Program-made: the position numbers and the translations under genes
Origin: a virus
Taxonomy: Duplodnaviria > Heunggongvirae > Uroviricota > Caudoviricetes
IMG/VR virus record: IMGVR_UViG_2513237251_000009
DNA length: 64,000 nucleotides
Reading direction: 5' to 3' (one strand)
The notes under the pieces: model-generated
Told to the model about the DNA's origin: nothing
The model's database searches: none
Seen by the model: the letters and a program-made list of their open reading frames with translations, nothing else
Shown: in pieces, positions 449 through 55,004 of the stretch
Numbering within the stretch: position 1 is the stretch's first letter
How the letters are laid out: each line of letters starts with the position of its first letter

Positions 449-580
449 CGTGACGTTCCTTTGGGTGGGTGAGCCAACGCCCGGGAGCGATCTGCCCACA
501 GAGAAAGTCACACTGACCACTCCGTAAGCTCACCCCCGAAAGGCTCTGTGGTTGGTATGCGCCGGGCGTGGCGCAGATAC

Positions 581-604
581 AAAAAAGGCCCGCCGAAGCG
601 AGCC
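581..604 (-). terminator. Intrinsic terminator after the tRNA cluster
   Basis: GC stem GGCTCGC/GCGGGCC with TTCG loop followed by a U-run on the minus strand, just 3' of the tRNA-Arg. Confidence 0.55.
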
Positions 605-617
605 TGGAAAATAAGTG

Positions 618-694
618 TGGCGCGTTGTAGTGGAGTCGAACCACTGACCGATTGCTTAGAAGGCAATTGCTCTGTCCGGCTGAGCTAACAACGC
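618..694 (-). tRNA. argO: tRNA-Arg (anticodon UCU), phage argO-type
   Basis: 77 nt; 7-bp acceptor stem, anticodon stem ATTGC/GCAAT with loop CTTCTAA, T-arm GGTTCGA, 3' CCA. Confidence 0.8.
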
Positions 695-707
695 AGAATA
701 CCGATAA

Positions 708-787
708 TGGACCGCCATCGGGGACCCGGCCCCGCACCAACAACCCTGTTATGGTGTCGTCTGCTCTTCCTGATAAGCTAATGGCGG
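708..787 (-). other. Degenerate tRNA-like element (argN position)
   Basis: Keeps a perfect 7-bp acceptor stem plus CCA and a T-arm-like hairpin, but the D and anticodon arms do not fold canonically; prophage B has an intact tRNA-Arg(UCG) here. Confidence 0.4.
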
Positions 788-794
788 TTTGTGA

Positions 795-870
795 TGGTGG
801 CCCTTGCTGGATTTGAACCAGCGACCTGGCGATTATGAGTCGCTCGCTCTCACCACTGAGCTAAAGGGCC
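795..870 (-). tRNA. ileZ: tRNA-Ile (CAU anticodon, lysidine-type), phage ileZ-type
   Basis: 76 nt GGCCCTTTAGCTCAGTGG...CTCATAATCG...GGTTCAAATCC...GGGCCACCA; resembles E. coli ileX. Confidence 0.8.
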
Positions 871-5013: not shown

Positions 5014-5169
5014 TTACTTCTCAGATTCGTAGTCTACGAAGACAGCGACCTCCGTCTGACCGGTTCGGATTCGCACCTCGCAGAGGTCTTTCCTCGTTAC
5101 CAGTGCCGTCACTATGACGGTTAAACAGATGACGATCAGGGCGATTAACATCGCCTTTTGCTGCTTCAT
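5014..5169 (-). CDS. hokD: Hok/Gef-family type I toxin (HokD/RelF-like)
   Basis: 51 aa MKQQKAMLIALIVICLTVIVTALVTRKDLCEVRIRTGQTEVAVF...; longer in-frame upstream ORF extends to 5226. Confidence 0.8.
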   Translation of the reverse strand: MKQQKAMLIALIVICLTVIVTALVTRKDLCEVRIRTGQTEVAVFVDYESEK

Positions 5170-5379
5170 AGCCTGCTTCTCCTTGCCTTTCGGCACGTAA
5201 GAGGCTAACCTACATGTGTTCAGCATGGATTGAGCCTCAGATTAATGTTAAGCGTCTTGCAGGACGCGTAATGTTAACTGGGGCTTTTCTCTATCTGCCG
5301 TTGGTGTTCATGCCCGAGGCAGATAGCCTCAAGCACCCGCAGCAATTCTACTTAACTATCCTTTTCCCGCAAACCGTTT

Positions 5380-12546: not shown

Positions 12547-12605
12547 TTTCTGGTGACGTTTGGCGGTATCAGTTTTACTCCGTGGCTGCTCTGCCGCCCT
12601 TTTTA
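12547..12605 (+). ncRNA. dicF: DicF small RNA (variant copy)
   Basis: TTTCTGGTGACGTTTGGCGGTATCAGTTTTACTCCGTGGCTGCTCTGCCGCCCTTTTT; one A-to-G difference from copy at 61773. Confidence 0.85.
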
Positions 12606-15379: not shown

Positions 15380-16270
15380 TCAGGCTGCCAGATCATCGTT
15401 TCCGATGGAAGCATAATAAGCTTTTTCTGCTTCTGCCGGAGGAGTATGGCCCAGCCTTCCCAGCAATCGTCGATTGTTATACCAGTCCACCCACGTTAGT
15501 GTGGCCAGTTCCACTTCTGCACGGTTTTTCCAGCTCTTACGGTGTATTACCTCCGCTTTGTAAAGACCATTGATGCTCTCAGCCATCGCGTTGTCATACG
15601 AGTCGCCTGTACTCCCTGTTGATGCCAGTAATCCGGCTTCTTTTAGTCGCTCCGTATAGGCCAGTGACACATACTGAGAGCCTTTATCGCTGTGATGGAT
15701 GGTGCCAGACGGACGACGGGCCCACAACGCCTGCTCCAGCGCATCCAGCACGAATGTCGTTTCCATAGACGATGAGACCCGCCACCCCACGATGTATCCG
15801 GCAAACACATCAATGATAAACGCCACATAGACGAAGCCCTGCCATGTGCTGACGTAAGTAAAATCAGCCACCCACAGCTGGTCAGGTCGTTCTGCCACGA
15901 ACTGACGGTTTACGCGGTCGCCTGCGGCAACGGCTTTCCGGCTGATGGTCGTACGGACCTTTTTACCCCGGAGAACACCGGCAAGTCCCATAACCGCCAT
16001 GAGACGTGCCACTGTACATCTGGCCACCCTGATTCCTTCCCGTAACAACTGACGCCAGACTTTACGCACACCGTACACCTGATGATTTTCATCGTATACG
16101 CGCTGTATCTCTCTCTTCAGCCAGTCGTCGTGCTGCGCACGGGCACTGCGTTTATCCGGATGATGTCGCTGTTGCTGACAATGGTAATACGTTGACGGGG
16201 CAATATGCAGTTCGCTGCATACCGGTCCGACCCCGTACTGCTCACGCAGCTTATCCAGCAGTGGCATCAT
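15380..16270 (-). CDS. IS629 transposase OrfB
   Basis: 296 aa IS3-family DDE integrase-core protein. Confidence 0.85.
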
Positions 16271-16593
16271 TTTTTCCAGAGGCGGTCGAACTCCGCCTTC
16301 GCAAAATAAGCGGAAGCCTGGCGAAGGATATCGTTACTGCGGCGCAGTTCACGATTTTCACGTTCCAGCTCTTTCAGACGCTGACGTTCAGCGCTGGTGA
16401 GCCCACCATCACCGCCCCCGGTATCCCGCTCATGCTGGCGAACCCAGACACGCAGAGTCTCCGGCGTACAGCCAATCTTTGGGGCAATGGAACAAATTGC
16501 CGCCCACTGTGAGTCATATTCATCCTGACTTTCCAGAACCATACGAATCGCCCGCTGACGGACTTCGGGGGAAAAACGAGTATTTTTAGTCAT
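16267..16593 (-). CDS. IS629 transposase OrfA
   Basis: 108 aa HTH/leucine-zipper OrfA; overlaps orfB as expected for IS3-family frameshifting. Confidence 0.85.
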
Positions 16594-45240: not shown

Positions 45241-45602
45241 CTATTTCTTTATATTGCTGAATTTATAAAAACTCACAGACATTAGCTGTATTAATTCCGA
45301 ATTGAAATAATCAGCCATATAGAATAAAAATAAAGCATAACAATAATAATCTTCTACCCAATCAGTACATTACTGCTGTGACTCCAACACGGCAGTTTTT
45401 TTATTGAACAGATTCCAGTTTCTTCCACCATCGCACCGGACGGGCGACCATGAGGGGAGAACGCCGCGCTCCGTTTACGCGGTAAACCCCGGTGTGTATC
45501 GTTTTTGATTATCCCCGCACACTCTCGCAGAGGAGTCTCCCTGTCGGGCTGCGGTCTCTGTTAATGCAGGAATACGGCGACGATACGGCGCATCAGCAAA
45601 AC

Positions 45603-47647: not shown

Positions 47648-47995
47648 TCAGGCCAGCGGTGGAGTCTTCAGAGAACCCGTAATTATTCCCGGTAGTTTTC
47701 CTCTGTAGGTTATCAACACATCCTGCGCCTCTAAAATTACGGGGCGCTTTTCCGGCAACGGACCATCCCCTTCACATAACCCGGCAGCAACATCCATGAA
47801 AAACTGCTTCGCCTGCTTTTTCGCCTCAGCTTCGTAAAACTCCAGCGTGGCACCTTCAGTACGGTCAAGACTAATCGCCACATCTGGCAACAACAGTGAC
47901 GGATACCCACCAATTTCCGGTGCCACAGTAACAGTAATCTTATCCGGGTAATTATTTATCCCTTTAACAACCAGTTCGTATTTTTTCTTCATCAC
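47648..47995 (-). CDS. Hypothetical lysis-cassette protein
   Basis: 115 aa between S and R. Confidence 0.5.
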   Translation of the reverse strand: MMKKKYELVVKGINNYPDKITVTVAPEIGGYPSLLLPDVAISLDRTEGATLEFYEAEAKKQAKQFFMDVAAGLCEGDGPLPEKRPVILEAQDVLITYRGKLPGIITGSLKTPPLA

Positions 47996-47996
47996 T

Positions 47997-48203
47997 TTAC
48001 TCTCCCCGCGCCGCCTTACGCCGGTCTTCTTTAATCTTGAAATACAGGTTCGTCAGATATGTCAGCAGCCCAAACAGCAGACTCCCCAGCACGCCTATCG
48101 CCACCCACTGGGACGGAGAGACTTTGTCCAGCAGCTGCAGTAACCAGTATCCCGTCCCCACCGCTGACGTGGTGTATGACACACCTGTTGTGATTTTTTC
48201 CAT
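47997..48203 (-). CDS. S: Pinholin S (phage-21 S21-like)
   Basis: 68 aa; two TM segments, C-terminal [13 protein letters not shown]. Confidence 0.85.
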
Positions 48204-48250
48204 CTGATGTATGTCTCCGTCACCGCCGACAGAAAATGAAAGTAAAGAAA

Positions 48251-48284
48251 AACAAAAAAGCCGCCAGTGTCACCCACTGACGGC
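48251..48284 (-). terminator. Intrinsic terminator upstream of S within the late operon
   Basis: 10-bp stem GCCGTCAGTG/CACTGGCGGC, loop GGTGA, then UUUUUUGUUUUU on the minus strand. Confidence 0.55.
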
Positions 48285-48382
48285 CAACGCCGGGAGCCGT
48301 GATTATGGCATTCAGGCTCTGCTAAAAATGCCAGATAACATTCCGGCCACCCCCTGATTCAGGTTATAAATGACACAATATC

Positions 48383-48502
48383 TTGACAACACCCGTCACT
48401 GTCTGTCAGAAAATATACCGCCAGGCATAAGTATCATGTGAAATCCAACTATCCTTCTGAGCCAGCACCTCTCCACCGAAAGTCAGTGCTGGCTGTTTTT
48501 TT
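48383..48502 (+). ncRNA. Candidate small RNA unit 1 (antisense to late operon)
   Basis: TTGACA at 48383-48388; terminator hairpin GCCAGCAC...GTGCTGGC plus T7 at 48461-48502. Confidence 0.35.
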
Positions 48503-48540
48503 CCTTAATAAAGCATCTGTAACTGAAACAATCCGCATAT

Positions 48541-48650
48541 TGATAATATATTGACAGGCATCATTGCTGTCTGTGAAAAATAAGTCTCTACAAACATATA
48601 AGGCCTTTTAGCCAGCGTCTTCTTTCAGGTCAGTCGCTGGCTCTTTTTTT
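48541..48650 (+). ncRNA. Candidate small RNA unit 2 (antisense to late operon)
   Basis: TGATAAT and TTGACA promoter-like hexamers at 48541-48556; terminator hairpin AGCCAGCG...CGCTGGCT plus T8 at 48610-48650. Confidence 0.35.
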
Positions 48651-48651
48651 A

Positions 48652-50502
48652 TTATGCTGCCGGTGCATTTATCTCCAGCACCAGACTTTCTATCTCAACG
48701 CCATACGCTGCATTTTTTGTAACATCCGTCAGCGTCAGCGCATTCAGTCCCAGTGTCAGACTGTCTTTTATAACCTGGAATGCCGGGCCAGCCACTCCAT
48801 TCAGTTTCGGAGTAACCGTGGCACTGCCGGCGGTGAACACCAGCTCCAGCGTCTGCCAGTCGTTACCGTAATCGCCGAACTCCCCCAGCTTCGTGTTTCC
48901 GGCTTTCCTGTGATGCATCAGATTCACTCTGCCGTCAGTGGTCTGAGTAAAGTACGACATCAGGAACGGATTACCGGTACCCGTCATCGCCACACCATCA
49001 GGAACGGGAGCATCCGTATACAGATAAATCCCCAGCCCGAACTGATTGTTGGTCAGCGCGCCTGACAGGCGGAACTTACAGGTCAGTCTGCCGCCCTGTG
49101 TCAGCAGGGTAATTGCGTCATCCACCGGATGCGTCAGGGACCAGGTTTTATTGCTCTGCCTGGTGATCTTAAATACACCATCTGACAACTGAATTCCGCC
49201 ATCCTTAATGCTCCAGCCCTGCGCAGCAGCCTCTCCGGCTGCCGGCAGCAGGGAGATTGTGCGAACGGACGTATCTGCAGACGGACCCGATGGCGTGTTG
49301 CCGCCGGGCGAGGGTTTGATTTCCGGTGCCTTACCACTGATGAAGGCTGAGGTGCGCCCGGCTGCGTTCAGAATAGCGGTTGCCAGACGATCCGGAATAA
49401 TGCTCCTGCGCGCCCATGAACTGAAATGTGTCGGGCGGTTTGATGATACCTGGTTTCCATTCGTTCTCGATGCCGCACCGTAATATCCTGATGCCGGAAT
49501 ATCCGGATCTTCTGCCGGCGCGTTAGTGGCGGTATTGACGCCGTTACCGTCTGTCATGAAGGGCACAAAATAAACGCCCTCACTCTCCCTGTTTTTATAC
49601 CCGCCGTACACGGTGTCGTACTGGGTAGCGTATGTATTTTTCCAGTAATACGTCGTGTCACCACAAATCCACGGCACATCTGCAGCACTGCCACCATGGC
49701 ACTGCGCGTTAAACACGGAGAGGTCAGCACGAAACTGTGCCAGCATGGCTGTAAACAGCGCAGGTTGCTGTGCGTGGGTGGCGGCGCTCATGTCAAACTC
49801 TCCCTGCATCCAGCAGACGGCCAGCAGAACGTTTTTGGGATTTTTCTGCAATGCCGCTTTTGTGCGGGAAATCAGATCCTGATATAACGGCTTGCCCACC
49901 CCCCAGCGTGCCGAATCCTGGCTGGCCCCCGTGGACTCGCTGAATGTCCCCTCCGCGCCCTGGGTAAATGCCGAACCACCACGACAGCATGGTACCAGCA
50001 GGATCCCCGCGTTATTCGGGATATACGGGAGCAGTTTTTTGGCAATATGTAACCCCTGGCCGACACAGCCGTACTGCCCTTTGCTCAGGTCTGCCTTCGG
50101 ATGATTCAGCGTACTCATATCCTGCACATCATGCAGGCAGTGGTCGGCCGGAATAATATCGTTATATCTGCAGGCAGCCCCACCCGGCGTCACTGTACTG
50201 CGGCGCGCCAGCTGTTTAATGCGCGGATCCGGAGCATCGTATGAATCCGGCAGCGGAAGCCCTTCACCGTAAGCCATGGCATTGGACTGCCCGGCCAGTA
50301 CGATGACGTAGTACCAATCCGGCTCAGTTGCACCACTGACCACCACATCACCTTCTGCTGTAATCGCCTGCATCAGGGTATAAGGGGTTATGGCCACCGG
50401 ACTACCAAACGGCTGCCAGCCCTCTTTCAGTTTGTGTGTCAGCTTTTCCGCAAGGTCTGACGGCGACGCCGCCCTGACAACATCATAATGTTTAATCGAC
50501 AT
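48652..50502 (-). CDS. nanS: Prophage sialate O-acetylesterase (NanS-p)
   Basis: 616 aa; N-terminal MSIKHYDVV..., esterase-like region VIVLAGQSNAMAYGEG. Confidence 0.8.
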   Translation of the reverse strand: MSIKHYDVVRAASPSDLAEKLTHKLKEGWQPFGSPVAITPYTLMQAITAEGDVVVSGATEPDWYYVIVLAGQSNAMAYGEGLPLPDSYDAPDPRIKQLARRSTVTPGGAACRYNDIIPADHCLHDVQDMSTLNHPKADLSKGQYGCVGQGLHIAKKLLPYIPNNAGILLVPCCRGGSAFTQGAEGTFSESTGASQDSARWGVGKPLYQDLISRTKAALQKNPKNVLLAVCWMQGEFDMSAATHAQQPALFTAMLAQFRADLSVFNAQCHGGSAADVPWICGDTTYYWKNTYATQYDTVYGGYKNRESEGVYFVPFMTDGNGVNTATNAPAEDPDIPASGYYGAASRTNGNQVSSNRPTHFSSWARRSIIPDRLATAILNAAGRTSAFISGKAPEIKPSPGGNTPSGPSADTSVRTISLLPAAGEAAAQGWSIKDGGIQLSDGVFKITRQSNKTWSLTHPVDDAITLLTQGGRLTCKFRLSGALTNNQFGLGIYLYTDAPVPDGVAMTGTGNPFLMSYFTQTTDGRVNLMHHRKAGNTKLGEFGDYGNDWQTLELVFTAGSATVTPKLNGVAGPAFQVIKDSLTLGLNALTLTDVTKNAAYGVEIESLVLEINAPAA

Positions 50503-50588: not shown

Positions 50589-50617
50589 AAAAAAAAGGCC
50601 GCGCCATGCGCAGCCGG
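50589..50617 (-). terminator. Intrinsic terminator upstream of nanS-p
   Basis: Stem GGCTGCGC/GCGCGGCC with ATG loop followed by U8 on the minus strand. Confidence 0.55.
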
Positions 50618-50816
50618 AAATAAAGGGATAACGATGATAGTTTGAGAAAAACAGAAATAACACTTTTGTGGCAAAGCATGGTGCCGGGTGCCTCCCGGTG
50701 AATTCAGTACCAGCACCTGAATCCGCGATTATCCCATATACCTTCTTGCTGATCGCCCCTCCGCACAGGGGGATTCACCATGCAGAAGTGTTTTTAATAA
50801 ACAGCAAACAAAAAAA

Positions 50817-51588: not shown

Positions 51589-51665
51589 TGGCGCGTTGTA
51601 CTGGAGTCGAACCAGTGACCGATTGCTTAGAAGGCAATTGCTCTGTCCTGCTGAGCTAAAAACGC
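51589..51665 (-). tRNA. argO: tRNA-Arg (UCU), argO-type
   Basis: Near-identical to 618-694 with one acceptor-stem mismatch. Confidence 0.75.
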
Positions 51666-51678
51666 AGAATACCGATAA

Positions 51679-51755
51679 TGGACCGCCATCGGAGACTCGA
51701 ACCCCGCGAAACCAGCTTCGAAGGCTGGCGTTCTATCCCGATGAGCTAATGGCGG
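51679..51755 (-). tRNA. argN: tRNA-Arg (UCG), argN-type
   Basis: Anticodon loop CTTCGAA, T-arm GGGGTTCGAGTCTCC, 3' CCA. Confidence 0.75.
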
Positions 51756-51762
51756 TATGTGA

Positions 51763-51838
51763 TGGTGGCCCTTGCTGGATTTGAACCAGCGGCCTGGCGA
51801 TTATGAGTCGCTCGCTCTCACCACTGAGCTAAAGGGCC
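51763..51838 (-). tRNA. ileZ: tRNA-Ile (CAU, lysidine-type), ileZ-type
   Basis: Near-identical to 795-870. Confidence 0.8.
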
Positions 51839-54603: not shown

Positions 54604-54759
54604 TTACTCCTCAGGTTCGTAAGCTGTGAAGACAGCGACCTCCGTCTGGCCGGTTCGGATTCGTACCTCGCAGAGGTCTTTCCTCGTTACCAGTGCCGTC
54701 ACTATGACGGTAATACAGATGACGATCAGGGCGATTAACATCGCCTTTTGCTGCTTCAT
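54604..54759 (-). CDS. hokD: Hok/Gef-family type I toxin HokD
   Basis: 51 aa MKQQKAMLIALIVICITVIVTALVTRKDLCEVRIRTGQTEVAVFTAYEPEE. Confidence 0.85.
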   Translation of the reverse strand: MKQQKAMLIALIVICITVIVTALVTRKDLCEVRIRTGQTEVAVFTAYEPEE

Positions 54760-55004
54760 AGCCTGCTTCTCCTTGCCTTTCGGCGCGTAAGAGGCTAACC
54801 TACATGTGTCTAGCATGAAATTGGCCTCAGATTAATGTTAGGCGTCTTGCAGGACGCGTAATGTTAACTGGGGCTTTTCTCTGTCTGCCTTACGGTGGCA
54901 TGCCCGAGGCAGACAGCCTCAAGCACCCGCAGCAATTCTACTTAACTCTCGCTTTACCGCAAACCGTTTTTACCCGATATGGGAATTCCCATATCGTAAT
55001 GAAT

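Follow-up and report, generated by a model that had tools for sequence, protein, structure and literature searches.

Several short, Hfq-binding RNAs have been described in the lambdoid prophages of pathogenic E. coli, and the closest to the locus analysed here is PasA of EPEC E2348/69, a northern-validated RNA of 85 nt (NC_011601, 743499 to 743415) whose stability depends on Hfq and which comes 12th in the ranking by RIL-seq interaction counts (Pearl Mizrahi et al. 2021, PMC8550237). A minor form of PasA, 236 nt long, ends at 743264 (PMC8550237, table S6). According to Zhu, Shabalina and Storz (bioRxiv 10.64898/2026.05.13.724894), pasA or its relative pasC is the gene between the esterase and the holin, and the order esterase, pasA/pasC, holin is typical. 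In EHEC, Hfq-CRAC of strain Sakai revealed peaks in 3/5 data sets for EcOnc51 (prophage Sp12, 2237479-2237555, plus strand) and EcOnc52 (prophage Sp4, 1181998-1182075, minus strand) (Tree et al. 2014, PMC4104026, Table S2). Existence, Hfq binding and formation of chimeras with core-genome, LEE and bfp mRNAs are thus on record for PasA and EcOnc51/52 (PMC8550237, PMC4104026, PMC5286369). AgvB and AsxR (RF02702, RF02703), also short Hfq-binding sRNAs of lambdoid prophages, share a conserved ~42-nt 3′ region, GUAUCUCAUGCnAUUGCCCGAACCCAyUCGGGC, and block a core sRNA (GcvB, FnrS) through base-pairing (Tree et al. 2014, PMC4104026).

We analysed a window of 64,000 nucleotides from a caudoviricete virus (IMGVR_UViG_2513237251_000009), in which 448 bp separate the genes of holin S and a sialate esterase (Table 1). 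Aligned with prophage Sp12 of E. coli O157:H7 Sakai (NC_002695.2; window position = record position - 2189033), this interval shows 100% identity, and with prophage PP2 of EPEC E2348/69 ~96%. It is very probably the pasA locus of the lambdoid prophage Sp12, consisting of two tandem paralogous sRNA genes (units 1 and 2) that oppose the late operon and whose products are Hfq-dependent and trans-acting. An original prediction, made from the letters of the window without database searches, had proposed in this gap two plus-strand RNAs of 60-110 nt and read them as candidate prophage sRNAs without being able to name them. All of its elements are present where it had placed them, and the two RNAs, of 85 nt and a predicted ~65 nt, match ones seen experimentally, so that the missing names are the PasA family for unit 1 and EcOnc51/EcOnc52 for unit 2. 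Both sRNA elements are, therefore, already known from experiment. What is new is the view of the locus as a pair of tandem paralogues, an apparent chimeric origin of PasC and a corrected assignment of EcOnc51/52.

Table 1. Features of the holin-esterase interval and its flanks (window coordinates)
Feature	Coordinates	Strand	Details and basis
Class II holin (pinholin S, ECs_2261)	47997..48203	-	ORF list and RefSeq annotation
Intrinsic terminator of the late strand	48249..48285	-	Stem 48259-48285, T-run 48249-48258; terminator scan
Unit 1 promoter, sigma-70 (inferred)	48383..48412	+	-35 TTGACA 48383-48388, 18-nt spacer, TG 48404-48405, weak -10 CAGAAA 48407-48412
Unit 1 RNA, 85 nt	48418..48502	+	Sakai Sp12 allele of the PasA family; probe match, EPEC PP2 alignment, fold, variability profile
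Unit 2 promoter region (inferred)	48541..48580	+	-35 TTGACA 48551-48556, 18-nt spacer, TG 48572-48573, weak -10 GAAAAA 48575-48580
Unit 2 RNA, ~65 nt if its own promoter is used	48586..48650	+	EcOnc51; CLASH fragments, shift-corrected peak, fold, EPEC RIL-seq
Read-through transcript, 233 nt	48418..48650	+	Unit 1 start to terminator 2; counterpart, via alignment, of the EPEC 236-nt 'minor' PasA
SASA-family sialate O-acetylesterase (nanS-p type, ECs_2262)	48652..50502	-	ORF list and RefSeq annotation

Both units are built on the same plan: TTGACA, 10 nt, CTGTCTGT, a stretch rich in A, a short single-stranded body and a GC hairpin. The two TTGACA hexamers, already picked out by the prediction, are perfect, and the conserved core that it had described is indeed found in both units, as CTGTCTGTCAGAAAATA at 48399-48415 (which contains CTGTCTGT within the unit 1 promoter) and as CTGTCTGTGAAAAATA at 48567-48582, but with a 1-nt indel between them, unit 2 having one A fewer. 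The string TTGACA-N10-CTGTCTGT-NANAAAAT occurs twice in the 64 kb of the window, against 0.00 occurrences expected from shuffles of the window. This layout suggests a putative sigma-70 promoter for each unit. A consensus promoter scan called neither of the TTGACA promoters, because their -10 hexamers are weak. The TGATAAT that had been listed as a promoter-like hexamer is present, but it lies upstream of the second TTGACA and therefore cannot serve as the -10 of that hexamer; TGATAAT/TAATAT (48541-48549) is, instead, a possible alternative upstream -10 for unit 2.

The hairpin of unit 1 is formed by AGCCAGCAC and GTGCTGGCT (48460-48468 and 48486-48494), 9 bp of 100% complementarity with 17 nt between the arms, and is followed by a T7 tail (48496-48502). 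In unit 2 the arms are AGCCAGCG and CGCTGGCT (48610-48617 and 48635-48642; 8 bp, 17-nt loop), and the tail is a C followed by T7 (48644-48650), the U-run of which stops 1 nt before the stop codon of the esterase on the other strand. The predicted loops of 17 nt, the T-runs and the ends at 48502 and 48650 were thus all recovered, whereas the predicted 8-bp stem has to be lengthened to 9 bp in unit 1. Terminator-like sites are in excess in the 1.7 kb scanned (5 versus 1.3 +/- 1.0 expected), and the hairpin-bearing 3′ parts of both units fold better than shuffled sequences (z = -3.2 for unit 1 and -3.4 for unit 2).

The gap had been described as holding no ORF. Short ORFs of 30-48 aa do exist in it, but the annotations of Sakai, EPEC and phage 434 include none of them. 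We rejected a small-protein reading of the 38-aa GTG ORF that runs across terminator 1, because this ORF lacks a Shine-Dalgarno sequence and is not conserved, a premature stop interrupting it in the PasC allele.

The covariance-model search against Rfam that had been suggested along with the prediction gave no match to either unit in 47900-48950, at gathering threshold or at E up to 10; two chance snoRNA matches were all that the search of the interval returned. Neither RNA is represented in Rfam or in RefSeq annotation, and genome scans will for this reason keep 'rediscovering' them. RF02076 (STnc100 / PasD) matches outside the interval, at 50640-50812 on the minus strand; this family is a late-strand short RNA upstream of the esterase, and units 1 and 2 are not members of it.

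The identity of unit 1 follows from comparison with EPEC. [quoted passage not shown] Unit 1 consists of a hypervariable 5′ body (48418-48457), a conserved CUAUCCUUCU and the terminator stem; over the 3′ 45 nt it has the sequence of EPEC PasA (with no mismatch to pasA in alignment columns 270-323), and the differences, 13 substitutions, are confined to the 5′ ~40 nt. Carried through the alignment, the 5′ end of EPEC PasA falls on 48418, 35 nt after the first T of TTGACA, which fits a promoter made of TTGACA, an 18-nt spacer, TG and the -10 CAGAAA, although Zhu et al. consider that the 5′ end of PasA may come from processing of a longer transcript (bioRxiv 10.64898/2026.05.13.724894). The reported PasA seed, GCCAGCACCU, is present at 48461-48470, where it overlaps the terminator stem; as published, the seed rests on a weak motif (MEME E = 0.024; PMC8550237).

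Unit 1 thus has the sequence marks of the PasA/PasC family (conserved 3′ half, probe site and seed GCCAGCACCU) as well as its hairpin (9-bp stem and U7, with two compensatory pairs across the family), and it lies where the family is found, on the opposite strand between esterase and holin of a lambdoid prophage. The slot, the strand and the promoter block are those of PasA and PasC in E2348/69, and a second unit downstream of pasA is present in EPEC prophage PP2 as it is here; PasC, by contrast, is single-unit. Judged by its sequence, unit 1 is the Sakai allele of PasA. Hfq dependence and Hfq-mediated mRNA chimeras are on record for the EPEC allele of PasA only (PMC8550237), and the Hfq-CRAC peak list of Sakai (Tree et al., PMC4104026) contains no peak for unit 1 of Sp12. 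Zhu et al. mention that PasA has a common variant, PasA-2, whose first 40 nt are different (bioRxiv 10.64898/2026.05.13.724894). Among 120 IMG/VR loci, the window allele (32 loci) and the EPEC allele (35 loci) have the two commonest 5′ bodies and diverge over ~40 nt. The window allele is, therefore, probably PasA-2, which we compared by its description.

For unit 2, the published coordinates had to be corrected before they could be used. At face value, EcOnc51 would fall on unit 1. This placement is wrong, because Tree et al. used NC_002695.1, and it was refuted by anchors between the two genome versions and then by the sequences of CLASH reads. The difference between versions (v2 minus v1) is about 0 at the EcOnc32 probe (0.90 Mb) and at the convergent terminators of EcOnc05/08 (Sp4, 1.18 Mb), +134 to +139 at AsxR (1.27 Mb), +138 to +143 at AgvB1 (1.94 Mb) and +120 to +149 at the EcOnc22/23/24 probe (2.68 Mb), so that the current record is shifted by +136 bp at Sp12 and by about +1 bp at Sp4. 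Likewise, EcOnc10 in Sp12 meets a clear 66-nt sRNA with a terminator (HnrS) only when the shift is applied. At +136 the EcOnc51 peak corresponds to about 48582-48658 of the window, that is, to unit 2.

The RNase E-CLASH table, which prints the read sequences (Waters et al. 2017, PMC5286369), leads to the same place: the EcOnc51 fragment (v1 2237458-2237483), TCATTGCTGTCTGTGAAAAATAAGTC, is window 48561-48586, and the EcOnc52 fragment, CTTTCAGGTCAGTCGCTGGCTCTTTTT, is the unit 2 terminator (48622-48648). With both the published peak and the hybrid reads mapping onto it, unit 2 is, as far as matching sequences can identify it, EcOnc51 itself, from the same strain and prophage, and the identical copy in Sp4 is EcOnc52. 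Reads of the two identical copies are not separable. In Sp4, unit 2 is immediately preceded by an IS629 element and so has no unit 1 next to it. As a name for unit 2 we also considered HnrS, a prophage sRNA of 66 nt with multiple copies, but discarded it, since HnrS corresponds to EcOnc10/11/12 and is found 3.2 kb from unit 2 in the window.

The Hfq-CRAC peak on unit 2 has its 5′ edge at ~48582-48584, about 31-33 nt beyond the T that opens the second TTGACA. A start at +35, as in unit 1, would be at 48586 and give an RNA of ~65 nt. The CLASH fragment at 48561-48586 lies upstream of this predicted start, so that at least part of the unit 2 RNA comes from read-through or from an upstream start. 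In EPEC, the unit 2 region qualified as an sRNA by RIL-seq and its 3′ end forms chimeras with escD, but the authors merged the region with PasA (PMC8550237); their RIL-seq fragment 743267-743294 corresponds to unit 2. The same study remarks that the EHEC homologues of PasA are EcOnc51/52 (PMC8550237). Since EcOnc51/52 are unit 2, this remark is true only for the long, 236-nt form. Recognizing EcOnc51/52 as unit 2 rather than PasA, and the locus as a tandem pair, is relevant to merging the EHEC and EPEC data sets.

We aligned the two units with one another and compared them across other lambdoid prophages, as had been proposed together with folding them. The units are identical in 79 of 129 alignment columns (z = 8.3 against shuffles), and the two-unit locus proved recurrent. 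Common to both are the -35 hexamer, the CTGTCTGT core, the TG and A-rich -10 at 18-nt spacing, ATAAGT, a U-rich stretch before the stem, the outer 7 stem pairs and the U-run. Across the family, pairing in the stem survives two compensatory changes, one from C-G to U-A and one from A-U to G-C, and 94.9% of cells pair, as compared with 21-50% when the partners are slid; the sequences are close relatives, so the support from compensatory changes is modest. Adjacent paralogous sRNA genes with a read-through product across both are also known in tandem duplicates such as OmrA/OmrB and PrrF1/PrrF2, the kind of case with which Zhu et al. contrast pasA, but the units described here differ from these in sharing promoter and terminator and little of the body.

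Of the 120 IMG/VR loci, 73 have the two-unit architecture, while 24 have a single unit of PasC type and 8 a single unit of PasA type; the others are interrupted, mostly by IS elements (7), or truncated where the contig ends (8). Variation among 46 unique two-unit loci falls mainly in the unit 1 5′ body, at 48413-48457, whereas the promoters, the terminators and unit 2 over its full length hardly vary, and both promoter blocks are invariant. PasC of EPEC prophage PP5 is a single unit that abuts the esterase. Its 5′ 72 nt match unit 1 (66/72), but its last 41 nt match a terminator variant of unit 2 (40/42, versus 31/49 for unit 1). Since its two parts match different units, PasC looks like a recombinant of units 1 and 2; alternatively, the two-unit locus may have arisen by the reverse event. 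We think it likely that the pasA locus is a tandem paralogue pair in which unit 2 would be an independent, nearly invariant sRNA gene, and PasC a unit-1/unit-2 recombinant. The independence of unit 2, in the sense of its having its own sigma-70 promoter, is suggested by the conserved promoter architecture. The statement of Zhu et al. that the copies of pasA did not arise as tandem duplicates of one another (bioRxiv 10.64898/2026.05.13.724894) is true for pasA proper but overlooks unit 2.

The proposed mode of action is as follows. Each unit would be transcribed from its own sigma-70 promoter with a TG-extended, weak -10. Unit 1 would yield an 85-nt PasA-family RNA with a hypervariable 5′ ~40 nt and a fixed 3′ half, and unit 2 the short Hfq-bound RNA recorded as EcOnc51; part of the transcription from unit 1 would pass terminator 1 and end at terminator 2. 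The GC hairpin and U7 tail would constitute the usual Hfq-binding 3′ module. Produced in the lysogen, the RNAs would base-pair in trans, dependent on Hfq, with mRNAs of the host and of horizontally acquired genes. In unit 1, the variable 5′ body may diversify the choice of targets, as proposed for AgvB/AsxR, while the fixed 3′ half would supply Hfq binding and the reported seed. When both RNAs were scanned for duplexes with 397 translation-initiation regions of the window, the best energies were no better than those of shuffled RNAs, and the energies looked unreliable.

A possible, though on balance doubtful, alternative for unit 2 is that it is only a second terminator of pasA, with EcOnc51/52 arising by 3′ processing of a read-through transcript of 233-236 nt. 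This would agree with the treatment of the region in EPEC as a 236-nt 'minor' PasA (PMC8550237), with the position of CLASH fragment 48561-48586 ahead of the predicted start and with a unit 2 -10 that is weak and escaped the promoter scan. Yet unit 2 keeps the promoter architecture and spacing of unit 1 though the rest of the spacer has diverged, its promoter block is invariant in the 46 unique loci, and the edge of the Hfq peak is only 2-4 nt upstream of the predicted start at 48586, all of which argues for a separate gene. The Sp4 copy, which IS629 cuts off from upstream sequence, would point the same way, but its reads cannot be told from those of Sp12. It is much less probable still that the hairpins are insulating terminators that protect the esterase from stray antisense transcription, the RNAs being functionless by-products. 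Terminator 2 does end 1 nt from the stop codon of the esterase, reports of a phenotype are lacking, and the function has not been elucidated according to Zhu et al. (bioRxiv 10.64898/2026.05.13.724894). Hfq binding, Hfq-dependent stability and reproducible chimeras with mRNAs speak against this reading; moreover, conserved promoters precede each hairpin, and the locus is kept in 698/5426 complete E. coli genomes at a median of 5 places.

The location of the units also raises the question of whether their main role is in cis, with transcriptional interference or antisense-directed cleavage tuning how much stx/nanS-p transcription reaches S-R-Rz. Both units lie within the esterase-to-S intergenic stretch on the opposite strand and are fully complementary to the esterase 3′ UTR and the Q-antiterminated late transcript; EPEC RIL-seq contains a late-strand fragment antisense to the PasA 5′ end (743494-743512), and PasA forms chimeras with the 3′ end of the neighbouring esterase mRNA. 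In addition, the slot between the last moron and the holin holds different sRNA cassettes in different prophages, such as EcOnc32 in Sp3. We nevertheless regard a mainly cis role as unlikely: uninduced lysogens contain abundant amounts of the RNAs, which have many core-genome partners in trans, and a hypervariable 5′ body would be pointless in a purely cis-antisense role, where complementarity is automatic. A combined scheme, in which the sRNA genes act both in cis and in trans, gating the lysis genes together with the late-strand terminator while the hypervariable 5′ body of unit 1 would independently change which host mRNAs are targeted, is speculative and in our view quite improbable. It is prompted by the units being antisense to the only route of Q-antiterminated transcription from the stx/nanS-p moron region into S-R-Rz, and, if true, such gating could set the timing of lysis and toxin release.

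The intrinsic terminator of the late strand, noted by the original prediction at 48251-48284, was found with slightly wider limits (Table 1). It has 11 pairs, 7 of them GC, and a loop of 5, followed by TTTTTGTTTT on the minus strand. Located ~365 nt downstream of the esterase stop and 46 nt upstream of the start codon of holin S (48203), just upstream of the holin ribosome-binding site, it is nearly invariant across loci. The record of phage 434 (OL657226) annotates exactly this terminator and those of units 1 and 2. From its position before the S ribosome-binding site, the late-strand terminator most likely prevents transcription without Q modification from entering the lysis cassette.

AgvB and AsxR resemble the two units in being antisense to the late operon, downstream of the PR′ morons, and in combining a variable 5′ part with a conserved 3′ terminator module. 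It was the description 'variable 5′ plus conserved 3′' that made us suspect this family first. Membership was rejected, as no covariance-model match was found in 47900-48950 up to E 10 and the sequences differ: the terminator of AgvB/AsxR is GCCCGAACCCAYUCGGGC, versus AGCCAGCAC...GUGCUGGCU here, and their length is 51-60 nt, versus 65-85 nt. EcOnc32 of Sp3 (Tree et al. 2014) occupies the same slot directly upstream of a holin, on the opposite strand and behind a TTGACA promoter, and its terminator 3′ arm, GCGCTGGCTCTTTTTT, is followed by ATTATGCTGC, as in unit 2. Its body, however, is unrelated and longer (about 112 nt), and the neighbouring esterase is only a remnant. The presence of a different body in the same slot suggests that the pre-holin slot is a general site for sRNA cassettes.

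Among complete E. coli genomes, the ~13% that carry the interval are almost all of EHEC/EPEC type and usually have several copies. Copies of unit 2 alone on pO26 plasmids were set aside as functional evidence, each being a fragment of an esterase remnant beside IS elements. A search for the promoter-core motif across species gave 56 matches, almost all of them single and in unrelated taxa; this is about the number estimated by chance for 17 specified bases in 596 Gb. With one genome per species, the two-unit locus was found, among 185,579 species, only in Escherichia albertii. The interval is also present in Stx1a-converting phages, in H-19B, in YYZ-2008 and in phage 434.

The two sRNA units on the plus strand of the esterase-holin gap each carry an inverted repeat at their promoter, with the -35 hexamer forming one of its arms, and a CTGTCTGT core is kept in both promoters despite divergence across the rest of the spacer. 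These repeats could serve as an operator for some regulator, or could form a hairpin within a read-through RNA. RNA from the opposite, late strand is known at this place in EPEC, where RIL-seq recovered a fragment antisense to the promoter and 5′ end of PasA, the relative of unit 1, in 19 chimeras with PasB. This fragment is probably the 3′ UTR of the esterase message, extending to the late-strand terminator at 48249-48285.

Unit 2 is found without an adjacent unit 1 in Sakai prophage Sp4 and on pO26-type plasmids. The plasmid fragment starts directly after the T-run of the unit 1 terminator and ends with an 87-bp remnant of the esterase gene. In Sp3, EcOnc32, which is among the strongest Hfq-CRAC peaks, occupies the same slot in front of the holin as the two-unit locus of the window; its promoter carries TTGACA, its terminator ends in GCGCTGGCTCTTTTTT, and a 3′ remnant of the esterase is present. 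EcOnc32 may represent a distantly related cassette of that sRNA family.

The window comprises parts of two tandem lambdoid prophages (Sakai Sp11 and Sp12) and an IS element; sok, DicF and tRNA matches are each present in duplicate. On the far side of the lysis cassette, 3.2 kb from the two-unit locus, lies a further sRNA-like element, to which the Rfam scan of the window assigned no family. Once coordinates are corrected, its position matches that of EcOnc10, the Sp12 copy of HnrS, which is an sRNA of 66 nt and a repressor of hha (bioRxiv 10.1101/2025.11.27.690950). Sakai coordinates published before the 2018 record update are displaced in the current record: positions in NC_002695.2 differ from those in NC_002695.1 by about 0 as far as 1.18 Mb, and by +134 to +143 at 1.27 Mb and beyond. 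An EcOnc feature read at its old coordinates ends up, without any warning, more than one sRNA length from its true place. Upstream of the esterase, between it and the tRNA genes, the STnc100-type element is a short late-strand RNA of the PasD/EcOnc type; in Sp4 the equivalent region holds back-to-back convergent terminators (EcOnc05/EcOnc08).

Features of the window and of related loci
Feature	Record	Position	Strand	Details
sok matches	window	5164-5338; 54754-54928	-	duplicate
DicF matches	window	12548-12599; 61774-61825	+	duplicate
tRNA matches	window	621-870; 51592-51838	-	duplicate
ALIL pseudoknot	window	16196-16312	-	IS3-type frameshift
sRNA-like element (HnrS)	window	45337-45402	+	terminator CTGCTGTG...CACGGCAG, then T7
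Unit 1 promoter repeat	window	48383-48408	+	TGACA-N15-TGTCA
Unit 2 promoter repeat	window	48552-48571	+	GACAG-N9-CTGTC
Antisense fragment counterpart	window	48405-48423	-	transferred from EPEC 743494-743512 (+)
STnc100 (RF02076) match	window	50640-50812	-	Rfam; whole element 50589-50812
STnc100-type terminator	window	50597-50615	-	intrinsic, with T8
EcOnc32	Sakai Sp3 locus	485-610	-	Hfq-CRAC peak
Unit 2 alone	Sakai Sp4	1182010-1182130		IS629 inserted just upstream of TTGATAAT
Unit 2 fragment	plasmid pO26_02E060_1	3001-3151		next to IS elements
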